Source: Octopus vulgaris
Lineage: Eukaryota
Direction of reading: 5' to 3'
DNA: 64,000 nucleotides
Assembly: GCA_951406725.2 (NCBI GenBank)
Contig: OX597818.1
Location: 8,928,001 to 8,992,000 of the forward strand
Shown here: positions 15,943 through 35,533 of the stretch, piece after piece
Position numbering within the stretch: the first letter of the stretch is position 1
Layout: each line of letters begins with the position of its first letter
Notes under the pieces: generated by a model
What the model was told of the DNA's origin: nothing
Database searches by the model: none
The model's input: only the letters and a program-made list of their open reading frames with translations
Translations under genes and position numbers: made by a program

Positions 15943-17070
15943 CAGTGGCTACGGAGCTCAGGGCGAAAGGCAAAGAGCGAAGGCTTTATCTTGGCTGCTC
16001 AAGATCAGAGCTTATTGATCCGGAACTACCAAGTTAATGCGATGTAGACCAAAAGTGCCGATACTGCAACAATAAGATTGAAACATTGGACTTCCTAATC
16101 TCTGGGTGTAAGGTTTTAGGACCGGTTGAGTATAAATTGAGACATGATTGCGTTGGCCAAAATCTTCAGTGGATAATATGTTGGCTTTATAAGATCAAAA
16201 CTGCAGACATATGGTATATGCACAACACCGAGTCTGTAACTGAGGGAGAAAATGTAACGATTCTTTGGAATATTCCAGTATATACAGACCTATTTCTTTA
16301 TTACCCACAAGGGGCTAAACATAGAGGGGACAAACAAGGACAGACATAGGTATTAAAATCGATTACATCGACCCCAGTGCGTAACTGGTACTTATTTAAT
16401 CGACCCCAAAAGGATGAAAGGCAAAGTCGACCTCGGCGGAATTTGAACTTAGAACGTAACGGCAGACGAAATACGGCTACGCATTTCGCCCGGCGTGCTA
16501 ACATTTCTGACAGCTCGCCACCTTCAGACCGGAGAAGCAAAGCTAACAATCCAGATATTCTTGTGAAAAAACAAAACTGTAAAATGCGTATATTGATTGA
16601 CGTGAGCATACCTTGTGATCATGATATCTCGGCAGAAGAATTTCATAAGTTCAGAAAATATAAACATTTGATGATTTGGAATCGAAAGAAAGGTTTACAA
16701 TACTAGTGATTGTAGGAGCACTTGGAATGATCAAAAAAGGAATTGGAAATTATTTGAGGATGATCTGCGTCTTACCATTCATGCAGGAAGTGCAATAGAT
16801 TGTGTTAACTCGTAGGACACTCGTACTGAGAAGAGCATTTTTACTGTGAATATTTTTACCATTTCACCTTCCTTTTCCTTCTTTTCTTTCTTTCATTCTT
16901 TCTTTTCTGCTTCTTTCCTTTTTCCTCTCTGTCCGTCTTTTCTATCACATGTCTCTGTAAATGAACAATCTGGTGTATTTATTTTAATGGCCTTCCACTG
17001 TATACTATAACTTTTTTGCTCTAGGTTTTGGGAAGACACTAGGCAGGAAATGGAAACAAAATGGAAAGAA
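15943..17070 (+). mobile_element. R4/Dong-type non-LTR retrotransposon copy A (degenerate 3' fragment)
   Basis: QWLRSSG..EGFILAAQDQSL, CRYC..IETLDFLISGC, RHD, WNIPVYTD[SINE]RRSKANNPDILV, IDVSIP, KYKHL. Confidence 0.85.
16291..16524 (-). mobile_element. Full-length tRNA-derived SINE with Meta-like domain, 6-bp TSD
   Basis: Head GGTGGCGAGCTG..GTTCAAATTCC; core GTCGACTTTGCCTTTCATCCTTTTGGGGTCGAT..AAGTACCAG. CAGACC is duplicated at 16285-16290 and 16525-16530. Confidence 0.9.
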
Positions 17071-17077
17071 GATATTG

Positions 17078-17587
17078 ATGGCTTCTGACCATAACTGATT
17101 GGAGGTGTTTTCGTGTACATGTTTTTTTCTTGGTATAAATGATGGACTACAGAAAATAGTTTTGCTCAATACTACATATTTGACCATAACCAGTTGAGAA
17201 TACCATTTAGTGGCTGACGATAGGTGCATTTTTTTATCACAAGCGCGAGTAATGGGAAATATTCATAGCCATGTGTTGAGAGGAATTCTTTGGGGTTTGA
17301 ATAATTCACATCTGGGAACATGAGTAGTTCGTTCAACATCTTTAAACAAACCTTATTCAGGAACCTTTTGAGCGGAATAGGCTACTCGATCTGAAGAAAA
17401 TTGTAAATGGGCCACACTTGCACGAACGTGCTAATTCTCTTGACATGAGTTAAGCATGTCAGACACACATGGCTGTGAGGAATGTAACTGATGTACCCTT
17501 AACAGACAGGTAGTCATAATGATTGTACTGGGCTTCGTATATTTTACCATGGTTTCCTTATTGATGGCATGCACTGATCTCTCACTC
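17078..17587 (+). mobile_element. Non-coding AAT-tailed element, copy 1
   Basis: Colinear homolog of 29634-30174, ending CTCTCACTC directly before (AAT)n. No ORF or tRNA head recognised. Confidence 0.75.
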
Positions 17588-17715: not shown

Positions 17716-18606
17716 AAAGATAAAGCACTATACTAGAAATTGTAAACGATGAAACTGAAAATAGGTGTGTAAAGAAAAGAATGCATAGTGAATTTCATAG
17801 GGATGTTGAAGATAAGACAGACAGAGAAAGAGTTGGCTGTGGATGACTAAAAGGGATTTAAAACCGGAAACGAAGGATCTAATCTGTACTGCCCAAGAGC
17901 AAGCACTATGAACAAACTACATAAAATGCAGAATAGACAATACAGCAGAAAGTGATAAGTGCAGAATCTGTCGACAAAACAGTGAAACCGTATGGCATAT
18001 TGCCAGCCAATGTACGCCACTAGCCCAGAAGGAATATAAGAGACGCCACGACAATATAGCCAGGCTTGTCCATTGGACACTCTGCAATAAGTATGGAAAT
18101 GACAGAGCAAAAAATTGGTACGGCAAGAAACCTGAAAGCATCGTCGAAAATAGAAATGCAAAGAACCTGTCGGATTTTAGGATACAGTGCGACCATGAGA
18201 TAGAGAATAGGAAGTCGGGCATAGATTTAATTGAGAAAGAAAACAAACTATGCTGGATCATAGATATAGCATGCCCAGCTGACAGCAAGGTATGCGATAA
18301 GGTAGAAAGAAAAGTCGAGAAATATGACAGGTAAGCTTGGGAAGTTAAGCAGTTGTGGTCGATGTAAAAGGTAGCAGTAATGTCAATAATTCTCAGAGCC
18401 CTGAGTAAAGTGAGCAAAAATCTCAAGAAGTTCGAGGAACAAATAGGGGCTGCAATAAGGGTGGAGCACTTGCAGAAAACAGCAGTGCTTGGAACCGCTC
18501 GAATACTCTGGAAGATACTTAAAAAATAAGAGGCGTTGCCTTAGTTCACTGGTAGTGAATAGCTGATACTGTAGTACATCTCCAGCGTTAGAAGCTGTAC
18601 AAAGGC
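17714..18606 (+). mobile_element. R4/Dong copy C (5'-truncated), flanked by AAT on both sides
   Basis: WLWMTKRDLKPET..LICTAQEQAL, CRICRQNSETVWHIASQC, RRHD, IIDIACPAD, KVEKYD. Short 3'UTR then (AAT)n. Confidence 0.9.
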
Positions 18607-23009: not shown

Positions 23010-24365
23010 GCAACACTAGGTGTGGTTTCAAATTGTATAATATTATGCTAAACTATCTGTTTTATATAAAGAGTTCAGCAATGACATCAGGATAGATTTT
23101 GGCCTTGATAAGTGTGCTAGAGCAACTTTGTAAGAGACAAGCTCAGGCAAACAGCTTCCATTTGATTAGTTACTGACACAACCATGAAGGTGCTTGACTC
23201 GCAAAGAAAGTTACAGATACGTGGGAATAAATGAAGGAGATGGTATACAACATGCAATTATGAAGGAAAAATGAGAAAGGAGTATTACAGGAGAGTAAGA
23301 TTCGCACTAAAACTTGAACTCAATTCCAAAAATCGCATCAAAACCTTTATACCCTGGCACCAACAGTAGTCCAATAGAGTTTTTACATCATTAACTGGAA
23401 TCTTACTAAGCCTGGAAAGGATGACAAGCAAACTACTAACATCTAAGAACATGCACCTCCTAAAAGCAGATGTTGATCGCCTGTACCAACCATAAGTAAT
23501 GGGGGAATGAGAATTGTGCTGGTAGAACTGCGCTATAAGACTTCCTAAATAGCAATTAAGGTTTTATATTAGCAGCACAAGATTAAATCTTGCTTACCAA
23601 AATCTACCAGCCTAATTTTCTTCAAAACGATTCTGACACTAAATGCAGATTCTGCGATAAATTGGATGAATCAATAGACCATCTCCTCTCGGTTTGTCCC
23701 ATGTTGACACTAAACGAATGCAAAAATCGCCACTATAAGTTAGGACAGTATTTACATTGGAAAACATATAAACACTGCAAAATCAGCACTCCTGCTTACT
23801 GGTATGAACATCATCTTCATTCAGTCATTATCTTGAAGGTAAAAGTCTTATAATCCTTTAGGATTTTCCAGTCAACATCGACAGAACGATCCACGCTGAT
23901 CAACCAGACATTGTCGTTAAGGACGAGGAAAAAAATACTTGTAGACTAATAGATATAAGTATTCCCTTTGATACAAATATATCTGTAAAGGAATTTGACA
24001 AATTAAGTAAATACATGGACCTTACAATTGAAATACAAAAGATGTGGCATCTTAAAGTGAGAACTGTTCCTGATTTTGTGGGTGCTCTAGGTATAATGTG
24101 AAAGGAATGTCAGAAACATCTAGATAGCATCAAAGGAGAATCATGTCTCAGAGAAATCCAAAAGTTGGTACTTCCCACATCCTTAGATAAACCCTATCAA
24201 TTTAAATGTAATACGTTGTATTATACGTCGATATTTTGCTACTGCCCCTGCCATTTTCCCTTCCCAAACTTTCGATCATACTGTAACATCGCCTATCCTT
24301 CACTCGCCCTAGGACGCTGTGTGTGTCTCGGCAAGTGATTGTAACAAACATGCAGGTTAAAATTA

Positions 24366-24493: not shown

Positions 24494-25149
24494 GTATTTT
24501 CTTTTCTGAGCATTCGAAAATGTAAACATTCTTCCCTTTGCAAAAATCTTAGTTATTTATTTATTTTTTCCAAATGGACATCTCAAGAATACTTAAAACC
24601 TTTAATATATTACCCAAACACGTAAACACGTAAACTTTTATTGCAACAACACAATTGAACTCAGAAATTAAAAAAAAAATCATCGAGTGAATATCAGAAA
24701 ATATGCGTGTGTGAATATACATATACATATGTGTATGGGTATATATAGCTGGATTGCTTTTCAAGATAACGCTGGTACTAGTAAACAGGTTTGACCTCTC
24801 CCTGACCCAAAATGTCATTTGCCCACCATCTGATGAATCTATTTATAGAACATGACCTGTTGACCGTGGCGATGGTGATGGTGATGGGAATAAGAATAAG
24901 AATAATAAGCTACTGCTGTGACTACACTGAAAACAATGTCATTGATGATGATGATGATGATGACGGTGATGATGATGATGATAATTCTTATTTATTTTTA
25001 TTTTTTATATATTTTTTCTCGTATTTTATTCTCATTTTTTCGAACTAATACAGGCAGAGTGAACCTTTCATAGGTTTAAAAAAATGAATGAATAAATAAA
25101 AAGATGAAGGGAAAACTATGCCCGGAGATAAAACTATCAACAAAAAAAA

Positions 25150-28100
25150 TACAGACGAATAGAGATCTGCTAGTCTTAAAAAGCTGCGCTACGAACAATG
25201 TTTACGTGCAGAGAATCCTAAACTGACAGATCCGTCTCTTAATGTAAGAGTCGAAGCTCGTCATGCTTCAATGCCAACAAAACAGCCTACAATCCGCGAT
25301 GGTCGACGAGCGGACTACAAAAGACCACGTACCCGAAAATTGAACCAAAGTCTGATTGAAAAATCAGCTACTGGATCAAATCTTCCCGACACACAGGAGC
25401 TGGACGTACCCCGCAACTGGAATATTCCAACAGATGGCCATCCATGTTTGTAACCAAACACTCAAAAGAAAAAGAAGGAAAAAATGGACTAGGGAAGATA
25501 ATAAAGAAGTTCTTCTACCATGCCATATATTTCCCCATAGATAAATCGAACACTATACAAACCTACATAAACTGGAGACAGAAACACCCTGAAGTAAGAC
25601 CCTACATAGACAGTAACAAACTTGCCAACGTCAGAAGAAACATTATAAAAAACAAATACTGACTGAAGTAGAGATTGATCAAATTAGACAAGCAGTAACG
25701 GATAGAATGAACGAAGCTGCAGCTAGAGAAGATAATACAGAGGAAATAATTATAGACCAGCTCAGAGCTAATAAAAACGAAGTAAGGATTGAAAGAGTTA
25801 GTATAAGTGATAGGCAAAGTGAAATACTCCCTGAACCAAATATAAACACTAAGACAGATGAACATCAAATAGATGAAGAAAGTCACACAAATATTGACCC
25901 AACAGAACTACATGAGCTAAAAAGTCAAATTATAATTGAATGGCTGAAAATTAAAGAAACCAGTATGGATGAACGTGATACACTCCCTAAAATCCGCAAC
26001 TCTAACCAAAACATGAAAATAATTGGTAAAACCCGGCTTGCACTTAAGGATATAATTTCACTAAAGGATATAATTTCAGCTAATGATGTTGATATCACAG
26101 ATCTCAACCACCTATACTATGCATCCGCGAAAATCTCAACGATCTTATGTGGGGAAAAGATTAGAAAACGGCAACATTTCCACAAAAAGCCTTCTTGGCA
26201 AGAGCGTTTGCAACAACATATTAAACTATTTAGATCTGACATTGAATATTTGAAAAACCTTAAGTTTCATAAGACTACCAAACCTACAAAAACCCAAAAA
26301 CTAATGAAAAAATATAATATGAAAACTATACTTGATATTGATGCCACCATAGAAACCATCAAGCAAAAGGTATCTGCTAAAGCTGCCCGCATAGCGAGGT
26401 ATGAAAAGCGTGTTAGTTCTTCAGGGACAACAACATGTTCAAAAATAACACCAAAAATTTTTACAGGAAGATAGGAAAAACAACAGTTACTGTAAAGTCT
26501 GTACCATCAAAAGAAGAAGTGTAGGGATTTTGGAATAAAATTTGGGCAGAAGAAAAAACACACAGCGGAAAGGCCATCTGGATTGATAGAATATCTAAAG
26601 AACTGGACTCCTTAGAAGAGCAAAAGTGGGAGGGTGTCAAGGTAGAAGATATAAGATCTGCTCTCAGGAGGTCAAACAAATGGAAGTCTCCAGGAAAGGA
26701 TAAAATCACTAACTTTTGGTTGAATGCCTTCCCAGAGAGCCATGAACTGCTAACAGAACTTTACAATGATGTTTTGCAACACCCTAGTAGGATGCCTCCT
26801 TGGCTAGTTAATGGGTTAACATTCCTGCTCCCAAAAAGTGAAGAAACAAATGAACCAAAAAACTATAGACCCATAACCTGCTTAACAACTATGTATAAAA
26901 CACTAACATCTGTCCTGACGGAATATACCTATAGTTTTTCGACAGACAGCAGCATATTGCCTAATGAACAGAAAGGATGTAAACGTGGATCCTACGGTTG
27001 TAAAGATCAACTACTCATCAATAAGATGATCTTAGAAGATTGTCACATACGACACAAAAACTTATCAATAGCCTGGATAGACTATAAAAAGGCTTTTGAT
27101 AGCCTACCACATAGCTGGATTAAGAAATGCCTAGAATTGTATAAGATAGCACCTGCTCTGCGAAAATTTTTGTCTGTAAGTATGAGATCATGGAGAACCA
27201 CACTAACTTTGAACAGTGACAATGAATCTCTAAATGTTGGTGATGTAAAAATTTCATGTGGCATTTTCCAGGGTGACTCACTATCATCGGTCCTCTTCTG
27301 TTTAGCCTTAATACCTCTCTCAAAACTGCTCAATGACGCGCAGTACGTGTATAAAATGTTTGATAAAAATATAAATCATCTCATTTACATGGATGATTTA
27401 AAGCTCTTTGCAAAAAATGACCAACAACTCAAGGGCTTACTAGCGATTGTCAAACAATTCAGTGATGACATCATAATGCAATTTGGCCTCGATAAGTGTG
27501 CAAAAGCTACCTTTATCAAAGGAAAAATGACAGAAACATCTAACGTTAACCTTGACCAGCAGAATGTCATAAAAGAATTAGACCCAGCAGAGAACTACAA
27601 GTATCTAGGGGCAATTGAAGGAGAAGGAATAAGGCATTCAGAGATGAAGGAAAGGATCAGGAGAGAATGTTATCGCAGAGTAAGAGCAATACTCAAGACA
27701 GAGCTGAATGCGAGAAACAGGATCGAAGCGATCAATGCATTAGCCATACCAGTTGTGACTTACAGTTTCAATATCGTTAACTGGTGAATTACTGAAATAT
27801 GTAATCTTGACAGAAAAATACGAAAACTGTTGACAATGCATAGAATGCACCACCCTAAGGCAGACACAGAACGACTTTATCTGCCAAGAAATGACGGAGG
27901 CCGTGGACTTTTACAACTGGCAATAACAATGAAGATTGCTACAATTGGCCTAGACACCTACCTGAAAAACTCTGAGGACTGGATGTTAAAACTTGTCTCA
28001 AAACATGAAAACAAGTAAGCATCATACTCAGTAACAAAACAGGCAAAGGAATATCTAAGTGAATTCCGAATACAACAAATTTCGGAATTAGAGATAGACG

Positions 28101-29143
28101 TACAAGAAACAGGCACAGAAAAAGCTAAGCGCATGAAAACCCGTGCTAAATCTGCGGCCTTAGATATTCTGAATGATAAATGGCAAGAAAAACCTCTCTA
28201 TAGCAAATACCCAAAGAGATCAAATAATGCAGATGTTGACAAAGCCCTGACCCATCAATGGCTAATGGCCTCTGGATTAAAATCTGAAACAGAGGGGTTT
28301 ATCATAGCAGCTCAAGATCATTGCCTACCAACAAGAAACTACCAGGCCAACATATTAAAGATCAGAAGCAGTCCAACGTGTCGTGTATGCCAGCAACATA
28401 ATGAAACCATTGACCATGTGGTCTCCAAGTGTAGTCTTCTAGCGCCTACAGAGTATCTCAACAGACACGATAGAGCTGCACAATATATTCACTGGGTAAT
28501 CTGCAAAAACCTGGATTTGCCCCATGAAAAAAACTGGTTGGAACACAAACCACCCCCAGTGCTTGAAAATGACCACATCTCACTCCTCTGGAACTTCACC
28601 ATTCAAACTGACAGAAAGATAGATGCAAATAGGCCAGACATCATATTGAAAGACTTCAAACAAAGAACACGCCTCCTCATTGATATGACTGTCCCAATCG
28701 ATATAAACGTATCTGTCAAGACCTACCAAAACCTGAGCAAATATAAAGATCTTGAAATAGAAATCAGCAAAATGTGGAAGCTGAAGACTAAAACAATACC
28801 TGTTGTCATAGGTGCCCTGGGAATGATAGCAAAAGGGGCTGATAGCTACCTAACTCAAATACCAGGAAACCCTAAAATGACAGAAATTCAAAAGATAGTG
28901 CTCATGGGAACTGCTCATATCCTACGCAAAATACTTTCTATGTAATCTCAAGGTTTAAAACAAACATAATTTTCAGTTAAAAAAAAAAAAAAATTTTTTT
29001 TTAGACATTCATTAGTACAACCCCCCCCCCAAATATATGGCACACTAGGCATAACAACAACATGAACTTCCAACCTGTTGTCTCTTGAGGTGTCTGGGTG
29101 AGACTTGGAGCCAACTTGTACAAATATAAAGCAAAAGTCAAAC

Positions 29144-29147
<4 letters not shown>
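25150..29147 (+). mobile_element. R4/Dong copy F, near full-length single ORF broken by a few stops/frameshifts
   Basis: ORFs 25707..26474, 26720..27787 (NYRPITC, WIDYKKAFDS, QGDSLS, YMDD) and 28133..28945 (CRVC..ETIDHVVSKC, RHD, RPD, D..VP.D, KY.DL). 5' end approximate. Confidence 0.95.
26720..27787 (+). pseudogene. Reverse transcriptase domain of Dong copy F
   Basis: RT motifs including YMDD; flanked by in-frame stops. Confidence 0.9.
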
Positions 29148-29229: not shown

Positions 29230-29558
29230 TCTCTAAAAGAAATGGAGAAACTCTCAAAATACAAAGACCTGGAAATAGAGGTAACTAGAATGTGGAACCT
29301 GAAAACAAACAATTCCTATCATAGTAGGTGCATTAGGCATGATAAAAAAATATTCAGACAAATACATAACAAAAACACCAGGACTTACAAACACATATAA
29401 CATAGAGAAAATTGCACTACTAGGCACTGCACACATCCTACACAGAATACTTTCCATACAATAACCATCAGAGCATCACAACAAATCACAGCACATACCC
29501 AAGGCACACAGAGCTGCGCTCGGTAGTGAAGTGAAAGCACGCTATAAAAATAAAACTA

Positions 29559-29561
<3 letters not shown>
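29229..29561 (+). mobile_element. R4/Dong copy G (333-bp extreme 3' fragment of a distinct family) between two AAT tracts
   Basis: KEMEKLSKYKDLEIEVTRMWNLKT..IVGALG..KIALLGTAHIL, with its own 3'UTR. Confidence 0.9.

Positions 29562-29633
<72 letters not shown>
29562..29633 (+). repeat. (AAT)n microsatellite
   Basis: Directly visible. Confidence 0.97.
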
Positions 29634-29637
<4 letters not shown>

Positions 29638-30174
29638 GCCCTGATGCATTACCAGGTAGTGGCTCTCATGGCTTCTGATCTTAACTGATTGGAAGTGTTA
29701 TCATGTACAATGTTTTGTCTTGGTATAAAAGATGGGCTACAGCAAATATTCTGCTCAATACCACAGATTTGCTTGTCAGTTGTTTGACCTTAACCAGTGG
29801 CTGACGATATGTGCATCTCTGATCACGAGCAGAAGTAGTGGGGGAGCATCATAGCCATGTGTTGAGAGGGATTCTTTGGGGTTTGAATAGTTCACCTCTG
29901 GAAATATGGGTGGTTCTTTCAACATCCTTAAACAACCCTTATTCAGGGACCGTTTGAGCGGGATAGGCTACTCAACCTGAAGAAAATTCTAACTGGGCCC
30001 CACCTGCAAGGTCATGTGCTGTTTATCTTGATATGAGATCCCCATGTCGCGCACATATGGTTGTGATGCATGTGCCTGGTGTACCTTTATCAGACGGGTA
30101 GTCATGATGGGTATATTGGGCTTCGTATATTTTACCCCAGTGTCACTTTGATGGCATGAACTGCTCTCTCACTC
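29634..30174 (+). mobile_element. Non-coding AAT-tailed element, copy 2 (flanked by AAT on both sides)
   Basis: Starts AAATGCCCTGATG directly after (AAT)n and ends CTCTCACTC + (AAT)5; homolog of 17078-17587. Confidence 0.8.
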
Positions 30175-30780: not shown

Positions 30781-31027
<247 letters not shown>

Positions 31028-31399
31028 GCTCGGGCTGAATAACAACATGGATGTTCCCTGGGAGCCTCTCTCCAAAAAACGAATTTAATCCAACAACATC
31101 GTTGCAATGGAAGAAAGGTTCCACAAAATATCTTTTCCAAATTTTCTTTTAAGGCAAAGTAACTAAAAAGTCCGAACTATTATTGCCATATATAGTATGG
31201 TTTTCTTTCTTTTATGCATAATATTTCCATGTGACATGCATAAGAAATAGAAGCGAACATCAGAGCTCTTGAAAGACAGTAAGTACATAAATTGATTAAT
31301 TAATTAATTATTTAGTATACATGCAACTGTTTATGCATACACGTACACATTTTAATTATAAAGCATAAATAATGATTACACGCGCTCACACGTACACAC

Positions 31400-34300
31400 A
31401 GAAAGAAAAACCACGTTACGCGGACGAAAACAAAGCAAAAACAAAGCGATTTTTCACGAACAAACGCAAAAAAGAGCAAATTGGTCACTGAATTTAGAAA
31501 GTCACTGAACAGTTATGCCCGGAAACATGTTTACCAAAAGAAATAGAGGCGAATTTCGATCTGTAAGTCTCATGCGAGTTCGATATGACCAATATATTAA
31601 TTCGGAGAATTCAGAAGTGGTGTCTTGTCAAAAAATTGACCCTGTACAAACAGCCCCTTCTTCTAACGTCACCGTCACAGAAGCGGCGTCTTGTCAAAAA
31701 GTTGACTCTGAAAAAATGGACCCCTCTGATGTCGCCGTCAATCATTTAATGAAAACAAGCCAAAAATCATGCCGGATCGGTCATCGCCCGGGACAACAAG
31801 GACCGCGTTACCCAGTAGGGAACCAGACTGGGGTCGAAAAGTTTGCTACTGGAAGAAACTCTCAAAAAGACGATCTACCAGGTGACCAGAACCAGAATAC
31901 TTCTAACTCTGGACTTGTAGTGACACCACCAAAAACACCACCTAAAGCAAAACGTATAAAATGGACCAGAGAGGACTATAGAGATGTGTTGAAAGCTTTT
32001 TATACAGCCCAACTAAACCCAAACTATAACCTCAGTGTACAAACATACATCTCATGGAGAAATTCAGTAGGCAATGACGTACGTAGATATATAGACGCAA
32101 ATAAATTAAGTAATGTACGCAGAGATATAATTAAAAACAAAAGACTAACTGATGCTGAAATTGACAAAATTAGGACACTAATAGCTCATGGTAGACCAAA
32201 AGAAAACAGCAACAATGTAGACGAAATAGGTAACAGTAGCACAGAAGCCAGTGTACAAGCGGCAAATCAACTTCCCAATGGGGAAGTTAAACAAATAATA
32301 GCGAAGACGAGAGATTTGAAAAAAGAGGAGAACGTAGACCTTCCTCAAGAAAACCAAAATAGATATGACATAGAATTAGAGGTGAATAATAGAGAAAAGA
32401 TTATGGAAGCAAAAGTGAACATTATGAGAGAACTCAGCAAGATTGAGCTCACTGACATGGTTAATAGAGAACCGCAACCAAAGTTTTCAAATGGCACAAG
32501 AAATAACAACACAATCATGACATATAACGTTGCCCTAGGACAGATCTTAAGAAATAAGGGGAATGATCTGACAACCTTAAATAATCTCATCTATTCCACT
32601 GCTAAAGTAGTAACTACCCAACTAGGTATTAAGATGACAAAGAAAAAGGCCAGGCATGTCAATGAACCTCCTAAGTGGAAAGTAGCGATACAAAAAGAGA
32701 TTGATTCTCTGCGGGCGGATGTTTCAGTTTTCGATGAGCTTGCTAGAGGAGTGAATATTAAGTCGAGAAAAGCTAGAAAAATCAAGCAAAAATATAAAAT
32801 CAAAGATCTCATAAACCTCCCTGCAACTAAGGAACTGTTGAAACAACGGATACAGTTGAAAGCCCAACGGCTTAGAAGGTATGACAAAAAAAACAAATTT
32901 TATCGACAAAATAAATTTTTTAAGATAGATGCAAAGAAATTTTATAGGGAAATTGGCAAAAATAAAATACACATAGAAGAACCACCTAAGATTGAGGAAG
33001 TGGAGGAGTTCTGGAAGAAGGTATGGAGCAACGAAAAAGAGTTTAATGCTGAGGCTGACTGGATAGAACGTGAGAAAGAGAGACTGGATGAACTTGAAGA
33101 ACAGAAATGGGAAGCAATAGGAATAGAGGAGCTAAGGTGTGTCCTTAGGAAGGCTCATAAATGGAAAACCCCAGGACTGGATCGGATCCCTAACTTCTGG
33201 CTGAATTGTTTGACAGAGGTACACGAAAATCTCGCTGCATCTCTGTCTGATGTCATTCAGAACCCAGAGCAAATACCTGCTTGGCTGACTGAAGGAACCA
33301 CCTACCTATTACCTAAAACCGAAGAGACAAAAAACCCAGAGAATTACTGGCCAATAACATGTCTCAACACCACCTACAAAATCCTCACATCCATAATAAC
33401 GGAGAGAATGTACGCTTTCATTGAACAAAACTCTATCCTTCCACAAGCTCAAAAAGGTTGTAAAAGAAACTCTTATGGGTGCAAAGACCAATTGCTCATA
33501 AACAGAATGATTGTAGAGAATTGCCGGAGCAAAAACAAAAACCTGAGTATGGCATGGATAGACTACAGGAAAGCGTATGACAGTGTCCCACATAAATGGA
33601 TACTCAAGGCCCTTGAGATATACAAGATCTCTCCTGTCGTCTCAAAATTTTTAGAGAATAGCATGACCATGTGGAACACACGTCTCTTTCTAAGCCATAG
33701 TAATGGGATGAGCCAGCATCAACATCAAACGAGGCATCTTTCAAGGTGACTCCCTCTCTCCATTACTTTTTAGCATGGCACTGATACCACTCTCAAACGA
33801 ATTGGATAGTACCAGATATGGGTACAAAGTTTTTAGTAAGTTAATAAACCACCTTTTCTATATGGACGACCTAAAGCTGTTTGCCAGGAATGACCAAGAG
33901 CTAGAAGGGCTGCTAACAACTGTTAAAGAGTTTAGCAATGATATCGGAATGGATTTTGGCCTTGATAAGTGTGCTAAAGCAACTTTTGTAAGAGGCAAGC
34001 TCAGGCAAACAGCTTCTGTTAAATTAGATACTGACACTACCATCAAGGAACTTGACCCACAAGAAAGTTACAAATACCTAGGAATCATCGAAGGAGATGG
34101 TATACATCATGCTACTATGAAAGAAAAAATAAGAAAGGAATACTATAGGAGAATAAGGCTTGTACTGCAGACTGAACTCAACTCCAAAAATTGCATTGAG
34201 GCCATTAACACCCTGGCGTTTCCAGTAGTCCAGTACAGTTTTAACATCATTAACTGGAACCTTACGGAACTCCAACGCTTGGACAGGAAGACAAGAAAAT

Positions 34301-35533
34301 TACTGACATCCAAGAGCATGCACCACCCTAAGGCAGATGTAGACCGCCTGTACCTACCTAGAAGCAGCGGGGGAGAGGAATGATGCAATTAGAGCTGTGC
34401 TATAAGACCTCTACTGTAGGAATGAACAGGTACCTATCTAGTACAAAGGACTGGATGCTGCGACTTGTGTTCGAACACGAAAGCAGCAAAAAGCTGCATT
34501 CTATTGTCAAGGATGCTTATAAGTTCGAAAGTGAACTAGACATTAACCTTGAATCAGATGAAGAGCCGGAAACCACTGCTACCAAGCAAGCAAAGCGAAT
34601 CAAACAGACTGCAAAAAAGAACGGGCAGAATCAAATTGAGAGGCGGTGGTGCCAGAAGCCCCTGCATGGACAATATATTATCCGAAGCCAAAATGCTGAT
34701 GTAGACCAAGCAACAACCCATCAGTGGCTGAAGAGTTCTGGATTGAAAGCAGAGACTGAAGGCTTCATACTGGCAGCACAAGATCAAAGCTTGTTTACCA
34801 GAAATTACCAGGCTAACGTTCTCCGAAACGGTACTGACCCTAAATGCAGATTCTGCGACACATTTGACGAAACAATAGACCATCTCGTTTCGGGATGTCC
34901 TCTGCTGACACCAAACGAATACAAAAATCGCCACGATAGGGTAGGACAGTATATACATTGGAAGATATGTAAACACTACAAATTCGACACTCCTGCTAAC
35001 TGGTATGAACACCATCCTCAGCCAGTTGTTGAAGGTAAAGATGTCACCATCCTCTGGGATCAAGGCTAATCGACCAGACATAATTGTTAAAGACAGGGAA
35101 GAAAATACCTGCAGACTAATAGAGATAAGCGTCCCCACTGATAAAAATGTATCTGTAAAGGAATTTGACAAACTTAGTAAATATAAGGACCTGGAAATCG
35201 AAATACAAAAGATGTGGAATCTTAAAACAAAAACTGTTCCTGTTATTGTAGGTGCCCTAGGTATGATAAAAAGTCAGAAACACCTAGACAATATCCCTGG
35301 AGAACCATGTCTCAAGGAAATCCAAAAGATTGTGCTAACAAGTACTGCCCACATCCTTAGAAAAACCCTATCAATGTAAATGTTTGTGTTTGTATTACAT
35401 GGAGATATTTCTCTACTTCCCCTCCCCAAGCTTTCAGCTATATTTCAACAACTCTTAACCTTCACTTGCCCTAGGGCGCTGGGTGTGCCCCGGCAAGTGA
35501 TTGCATCAAACATGCAGATTAAAAGTAAATGAC
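31400..35533 (+). mobile_element. R4/Dong copy H, youngest near-complete copy
   Basis: 744-aa ORF 31515..33749, then 33775..34383 (YMDD), 34380..35069 (CRFC..ETIDHLVSGC, RHD) and 35005..35379 (RPD, E..VP.D, KYKDL). About three frameshifting lesions. The 5'UTR start is uncertain and could extend to 31028. Confidence 0.95.
31515..35379 (+). pseudogene. RT-CCHC-RLE polyprotein of Dong copy H (frameshifted)
   Basis: Four overlapping or adjacent ORFs reconstruct one R4-clade ORF. Confidence 0.9.

Follow-up and report, generated by a model that had tools for sequence, protein, structure and literature searches.

EhSINE1 and EhSINE2 of Entamoeba are not known to have a tRNA head, and their partner EhLINE belongs to the R4 clade. 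They are 0.5-0.7-kb non-coding LINE passengers that have local sequence in common with the LINE and occupy loosely T-rich sites (PMC3716655, PMC3167599). Passengers of site-specific RLE retrotransposons are described as rare and as retaining their partner's ends (PMC3414825). The R2 SIDEs described there are short, non-coding, site-specific and target-primed, lack a Pol III head and have an RLE-type partner (PMC3414825); they are rare residents of rDNA that keep a recognisable 5' ribozyme and the partner's 3' end. Neither SINEU-3 of crocodilians nor Sadhu of Arabidopsis, both non-coding retroposons, has a Pol III promoter, and SINEU-3 is target-specific. SINEU has an snRNA head and lies beside a Mariner repeat, Sadhu is ~900 bp long, and no Dong partner or microsatellite target is described for SINEU-3 or Sadhu in that source (PMC4494074). 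Dong, of the R4 clade, encodes a protein of ~1,300 aa and is reported to target TAA repeats (PMC3812793).

The octopus element described here resembles these retroposons in being short, non-coding and free of a Pol III head. Unlike R2 SIDEs, it shows neither a 5' ribozyme nor a partner's 3' end, and it occupies a microsatellite target in more than 22,000 copies. Unlike EhSINEs, it has a defined repeat target, and no local sequence in common with a LINE was found. It is a headless non-autonomous retroposon that falls outside the canonical SINE class and, for the Dong families sampled, appears to fall outside the SIDE class. We consider it probable that it is a Dong-dependent, non-coding 558-nt passenger of (AAT)n arrays that forms an independent family. 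The literature searched yielded no Dong-dependent passenger targeted to a microsatellite; Repbase, Dfam and a Zenodo library (PMC13282606) may list its consensus. The available parts of octopus papers name Dong-R4 or SINE classes, not this element family (PMC13282606, PMC8967140, PMC9115989, PMC4758252, PMC5753468).

The window, the 64,000-nucleotide stretch of Octopus vulgaris DNA that was analysed, is a train of AAT arrays with same-strand pieces of several RT-encoding elements. It holds two copies of the element, with the following features:

29562..29633, + strand: (AAT)24 array, 5' side of the target
29634..30174, + strand: full-length retroposon copy with a 17-nt internal deletion, 94% identical to the consensus, consensus positions 1-558
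29634..29737, + strand: head with fixed start, without B box, T4 run at 29713 and TATAAAAG at 29724
29738..29890, + strand: segment (consensus 105-274) common to a 490-bp MITE family, 96% consensus identity
30175..30189, + strand: (AAT)5, tail or 3' side of the target, in the phase seen at Dong ends
17078..17587, + strand: old 5'-truncated copy, consensus 35-558, 80% identity, abutting a Dong 3'UTR

A sequence-only reading of the window had described two diverged, colinear + strand copies with a common 3' end and without ORF, Pol III boxes or TIRs, and this description is confirmed. The copies are 79% identical over 512 columns, with a local score of 491 against a best shuffle score of 28 (n=200). 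Both end in CTCTCACTC followed by (AAT)5, and neither yielded an ORF, a B box, a tRNA gene or a TIR. Upstream of the 29634 copy stand 24 AAT units. The 17078 copy lacks its first 34 nt, and no AAT separates it from the preceding Dong 3'UTR; its best other matches are near-consensus copies at 80%. Judged by its sequence, it is a decayed, old member of the same 558-nt family. The 17-nt deletion of the 29634 copy (consensus 165-181, window 29798) recurs across subfamilies and lies between short direct repeats.

The consensus of 558 nt was built from the 30 best matches. An internal 24-mer with up to 2 mismatches has 22,523 matches in the genome (G000), a 22-mer from the 3' end has 7,757 exact matches and a 23-mer from the 5' end 5,894, and the reversed control gave 0 for each. 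The family therefore numbers at least 22,523 copies in G000, and its share of the genome is roughly estimated at ~10 Mb. Contigs from sequencing runs under four organism labels contain the element in bulk, and the richest of these runs may stem from the window's own sample. No long reading frame was found in the consensus, Pfam matched none of the 13 short frames in a near-consensus copy, and neither TIRs nor LTRs were detected in the element. Identity among copies ranges from ~80% to 99.6%; in the largest subfamily, 37 copies diverge by 1.1% from the subfamily consensus with CpG sites excluded. The family is real, abundant and recently active. Automatic annotation would probably leave it as an unclassified SINE.

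Consensus sequences derived separately for old, middle and young copies disagree at ~7 of 558 positions. Such constancy would suit a non-selfish origin, the copies being retrocopies of a conserved host non-coding RNA that ends in AAU repeats. This reading is very unlikely, since several subfamilies carry their own diagnostic changes, which points to many source copies. Rfam gave nothing better than E 4, and no source locus lacking AAT was seen among the 40 of 117 candidates scored.

The ends of the element were profiled in 150 3'-anchored copies, all within the first 40 Mb of contig C1. They comprise the first 90 of 100 matches listed and 60 of a second 100, from which 36 already in the first sample and 4 others were left out; the sample of 90 misses one subfamily with a changed 3' motif, and the set includes a few duplicate loci (L200/L205). 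The proposed AAT association is borne out: AAT follows the 3' end in 88/90 and 59/60 copies (147/150). On the 5' side, an AAT-type array adjoins the junction in 64/90 (58 by a stricter rule) and 49/60 (113/150), against a background rate of 1.1% (409/35,760 positions); 37/150 lack a clean 5' array. AAT also lies upstream of truncated copies (24/41 and 22/31; 46/72), which identifies the array as target sequence and not as a portion of the RNA. At 83/90 junctions, AAT follows in the same phase as at the ends of Dong.

Full-length copies also have one fixed start. It lies within 20 nt of consensus position 1 in 78/150 copies, and the other 72 are 5'-truncated. When copies are anchored at the 5' end instead, 26/30 reach the 3' end without interruption, 2 pick up again past a deletion and 2 break off. 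A fixed 3' end with variable 5' truncation is a mark of target-primed reverse transcription. The first tens of bases are tandemly duplicated in 14/164 near-full-length copies. As a side observation, 8/72 truncations fall at consensus 438-454 (window ~30054-30070), just 5' of the folded 3' domain, a clustering that is weak once many windows are allowed for. Separately, the head motif forms a tandem array at G000:C1:30148148-30149000 (11 exact matches, ~68-bp spacing).

These profiles bear on whether the element is merely the long 3'UTR of an ORF-bearing LINE known from truncated copies, a reading that we regard as extremely improbable. Its support is that the 17078 copy and 4/150 sampled copies touch Dong sequence without AAT. 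In those four truncated copies (L031, L057, L189, L367), a sense Dong ORF is fused to the element; the junctions lie at different points of different Dong families, and the fusions are deletions or template jumps. A further direct fusion of an element piece to Dong ORF sequence without AAT was noted at L166. The sequence-only reading had named longer copies extending into an RT/RLE ORF as the observation that would overturn it, and there are none in the 150. The 78 copies that start near one point do not continue into any shared sequence, whereas in the same kind of search with a fragment of Dong family F1, 11/11 other matches run into the ORF. The missing upstream continuation, set against this control, indicates that the element is almost certainly an independent retroposon. 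Genome-wide counts, end profiles and controls thus agree with the description of a non-coding, AAT-targeted retroposon without a tRNA head.

The RT-encoding neighbours of the two copies are as follows:

25115..29147, + strand: broken Dong-type element, family F2, with RT, zinc knuckle, C-terminal nuclease region and 3'UTR hairpin
29230..29561, + strand: upstream neighbour, a 5'-truncated Dong 3' fragment of family F1 that served as the positive control
31027..35533, + strand: young full-length Dong-type element, family F7, with 1344-aa open frames in its sister copies
17011..17050, + strand: 3'UTR hairpin of the Dong copy preceding the old copy, 27 bits, model R1

The neighbours have a single ORF with RVT_1, a weak zf-RVT and a C-terminal nuclease-like region, which we take to contain the RLE motif. 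A PDB search on the RLE assignment found no match, and a homologue search returned no Dong-named entry among the 120 matches listed; the name Dong is given on the basis of architecture and target. AAT flanks are present at the Dong-type copies. Family F7 (31027-35533; L092-L120) is very young, with many open frames of 1300-1350 aa and a fixed 5' start, and its first 15-30 nt are often tandemly duplicated. At L100 and G000:C31:3564141-3574495, F7 matches ~5 kb apart lie within open frames of 1772-2583 aa, which exceed the length of a single element.

Dong encodes its own protein and the element encodes none; the two are otherwise alike in TAA/AAT target, strand, junction phase, truncation and head duplication (the last also seen in Dong F7 and F1, at L099, L103, L113, L141 and L142). 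The agreement in target, strand, junction phase and 5'-end duplication makes Dong the likely mover of the element. Young Dong copies have open 1344-aa frames, and the youngest element subfamily is ~1.1% diverged. A Dong 3' end, from at least 6 families, lies directly upstream of 33/141 copies, and directly downstream of the 141 stand 24 sense and 4 antisense Dong sequences. Co-transduction with one upstream Dong was considered and rejected, given similar numbers of neighbours downstream (24) and upstream (33) and the many families involved.

Another AAT-favouring enzyme, APE-type Tx1/RTE or Penelope, is an improbable mover. Such a mover would fit the lack of a tail in common with Dong; AAT-ended repeats of the Penelope type are also frequent beside the arrays, and APE elements targeting other microsatellites are reported (PMC3812793, PMC4494074). 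However, 68/303 long frames at the 150 loci are Dong-like, and 3 of the 50 longest among the other 235 match an APE or RT family. Penelope-type AAT-tailed repeats, taken as a control, had no same-strand 5' AAT in 20/20 loci (by eye); they insert outside arrays and often as inverted pairs, and the element does neither.

From the target and the junctions, the earlier proposal that Dong machinery mobilises the element is likely, but none of the Dong families compared has a tail in common with it. Comparison with the 15 Dong 3'-end clusters sampled detected no shared sequence; the best p values, 0.01 and 0.025, came from single copies and are not significant over 15 tests. The stringent SINE/LINE criterion asks for a 3' tail sequence in common with the LINE, and none of these clusters supplies one. 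Three Dong 5' ends (F1, F7 and one more) gave no match to the element head, and Dong protein HMMs scored the six frames of the element like shuffles. An 'AHI' tripeptide before the 3' domain, reminiscent of the Dong C-terminus, was dismissed since its HMM scores equal those of shuffles. An octopus annotation lists 51 Dong-R4 consensus families (PMC13282606), so the partner may lie outside the 15 sampled clusters.

A possible resemblance to Dong lies in RNA shape. Eight Dong families have one 3'UTR hairpin in common despite unrelated sequence. Two stems are separated by a 3-nt bulge facing a single base and capped by a short loop, with invariant flanking pairs. In the alignment, whose structure was read from one of the rows scored, 87% of cells pair, against 32-47% in slid controls, and 13/15 pairs change on both sides. 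The hairpin is likely a protein-binding signal, as predicted from this pattern. The hairpins relevant to the element are:

30075..30120, + strand: stable hairpin with a GGGUA loop, its 3-nt bulge facing 1 nt; putative site of Dong-protein binding, z -3.96
30109..30137, + strand: UGGG-loop hairpin, mutually exclusive with the 30075-30120 hairpin, z +0.67
35461-35500, 29076-29115, 18531-18570, 24299-24338, 17011-17050 and 29490-29530: the six Dong hairpins of the window

The 30075-30120 hairpin, whose boundaries were chosen after an earlier scan, has a z of -3.96, with 0/200 shuffles as good, and -4.45 in a second copy. It has a TTA bulge and an NGGTA loop in common with Dong family F4. A near-consensus copy aligns end to end with a Dong-only model, at 5 bits and E 1.2, and neither window copy gave a Dong-model match to E 10. 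The six window Dong hairpins score 18-45 bits, their families being in the training set. The element hairpin has U-A where Dong keeps G-Y, and its loop-to-tail distance is 74 nt, versus 40-52 nt in the six window Dongs. Subfamily changes at 462, 470 and 500 in this hairpin keep pairing, which is expected by chance ~1 in 5 times. In the 17078 copy, neither hairpin still folds. Structural mimicry of the Dong hairpin is plausible. Recognition by Dong through this hairpin can be proposed tentatively from the modelled fold, with a probability that we put somewhat below even.

The sequence-only reading had placed the Dong-like signal in the hairpin whose loop starts UGGG. The TGGG motifs are indeed present at 30117 and 17529, but this hairpin is not stable: its z is +0.67, 147/200 shuffles fold equally well, and the stronger 30075-30120 hairpin takes up its 5' arm. 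In the near-consensus copy, it is absent from Dong-model matches to E 10. The UGGG hairpin is nearer to Dong loops in its distance from the tail, but as a Dong mimic it is probably the wrong one.

The shape of the 3' hairpin could also mean that Dong moves the element because the element is itself an internally deleted, SIDE-type derivative of an unsampled or extinct Dong, whose UTRs would supply head and tail. Dong UTRs differ strongly between families, 51 Dong-R4 families are annotated in octopus (PMC13282606) versus 15 3'-end clusters and three 5' ends sampled, and the hairpin has the Dong outline with the bulge and loop of F4. On the other hand, no longer element with either end occurs among the 150 3'-anchored and 30 5'-anchored copies, the element has no coding remnant, and the four Dong ORF fusions join different families at different points. 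On balance, we rate this derivation as unlikely but weightier than a foreign mover or a host RNA.

For a Dong-dependent passenger, a cycle can be proposed. An RNA from about AAUGCCC to the AAU repeats would be made, probably not by Pol III. A Dong protein would bind this RNA in trans; it would probably recognise the bulged 3' hairpin together with the AAU tail, and not a shared tail sequence. The enzyme would then nick the ATT strand of an array and prime reverse transcription there, which may account for the common junction phase. Early stops would give truncated copies, and restarts would give duplicated heads. A bolder version holds that the element is an AAT-homing parasite not descended from Dong, a shape-only mimic that used several Dong hosts and a promoter of undescribed type and outlived its hosts nearly unchanged. 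In this full form the idea is speculative and rather doubtful; if true, an RLE retrotransposon can be hijacked without common sequence. An RNA that reaches the Dong target in more than 22,000 copies without detectable common sequence is a natural test of the enzyme's RNA requirements, and it bears on the origin of SINE-like elements and on RNA-templated gene insertion with R2-type proteins.

How the RNA might arise was approached through the head. Compared with the Pol III box consensus sequences, the element has no counterpart of the B-box 11-mer at up to 2 mismatches, and T4 runs stand at consensus 80, 336 and 514, which together argue against Pol III transcription. ARAGORN reported 0 tRNA in 30 loci, where tRNA-like repeats also escaped it. 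In 0.8 Mb of loci, the element had no match to the tRNA SINEs nearby. The element is not a canonical SINE with a tRNA, 5S or 7SL head. An HDV-like ribozyme was not detected in the element, F1 or F7 with our own descriptor of the motif, which had no positive control, and Rfam found none in the element. Among retrozyme features, two CTGANGA words are present, with no proper stem II, no pile-up of ends and no Rfam match. One hammerhead-like set at consensus 170-290 (GUC, CUGACGA and a distant GAAAC) was rejected, having a 2-bp stem I and a poor stem II; many copies also lack the site through deletion, and copy ends do not accumulate at it. With no ribozyme found, the fixed start would suggest an internal Pol II promoter or a few source copies driven from upstream. 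Element words stood at 6-18% in six metatranscriptomes, with low-depth contigs from four, values that are uninformative on expression, and the insect and faeces labels of these runs carry no information on habitat.

Part of the retroposon also occurs in a 490-bp MITE with imperfect inverted ends of ~100-120 bp starting from CACTGTG and 3-bp TTA/TAA target duplications, which we presume to be PIF/Harbinger-like. It was traced through 317 exact motif matches (loci L287-L346, e.g. G000:C1:82662159-82665181). The MITE carries consensus 105-274 with 164/170 letters identical, and the segment is present in 30/30 (one partial) and 26/30 MITE loci in two samples. MITE copies are ~88.5% identical to their own consensus. 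Within the segment, the MITE version shows decay at both CpG sites, which makes it likely that the MITE took up a genomic retroposon copy. On these sequence grounds, the retroposon is likely older than the MITE, capture in the reverse direction being a possible alternative. Another repeat of the arrays, at L237-L256, is tRNA-like, ends in AAT, often stands in back-to-back pairs and adjoins a hammerhead-like word set.
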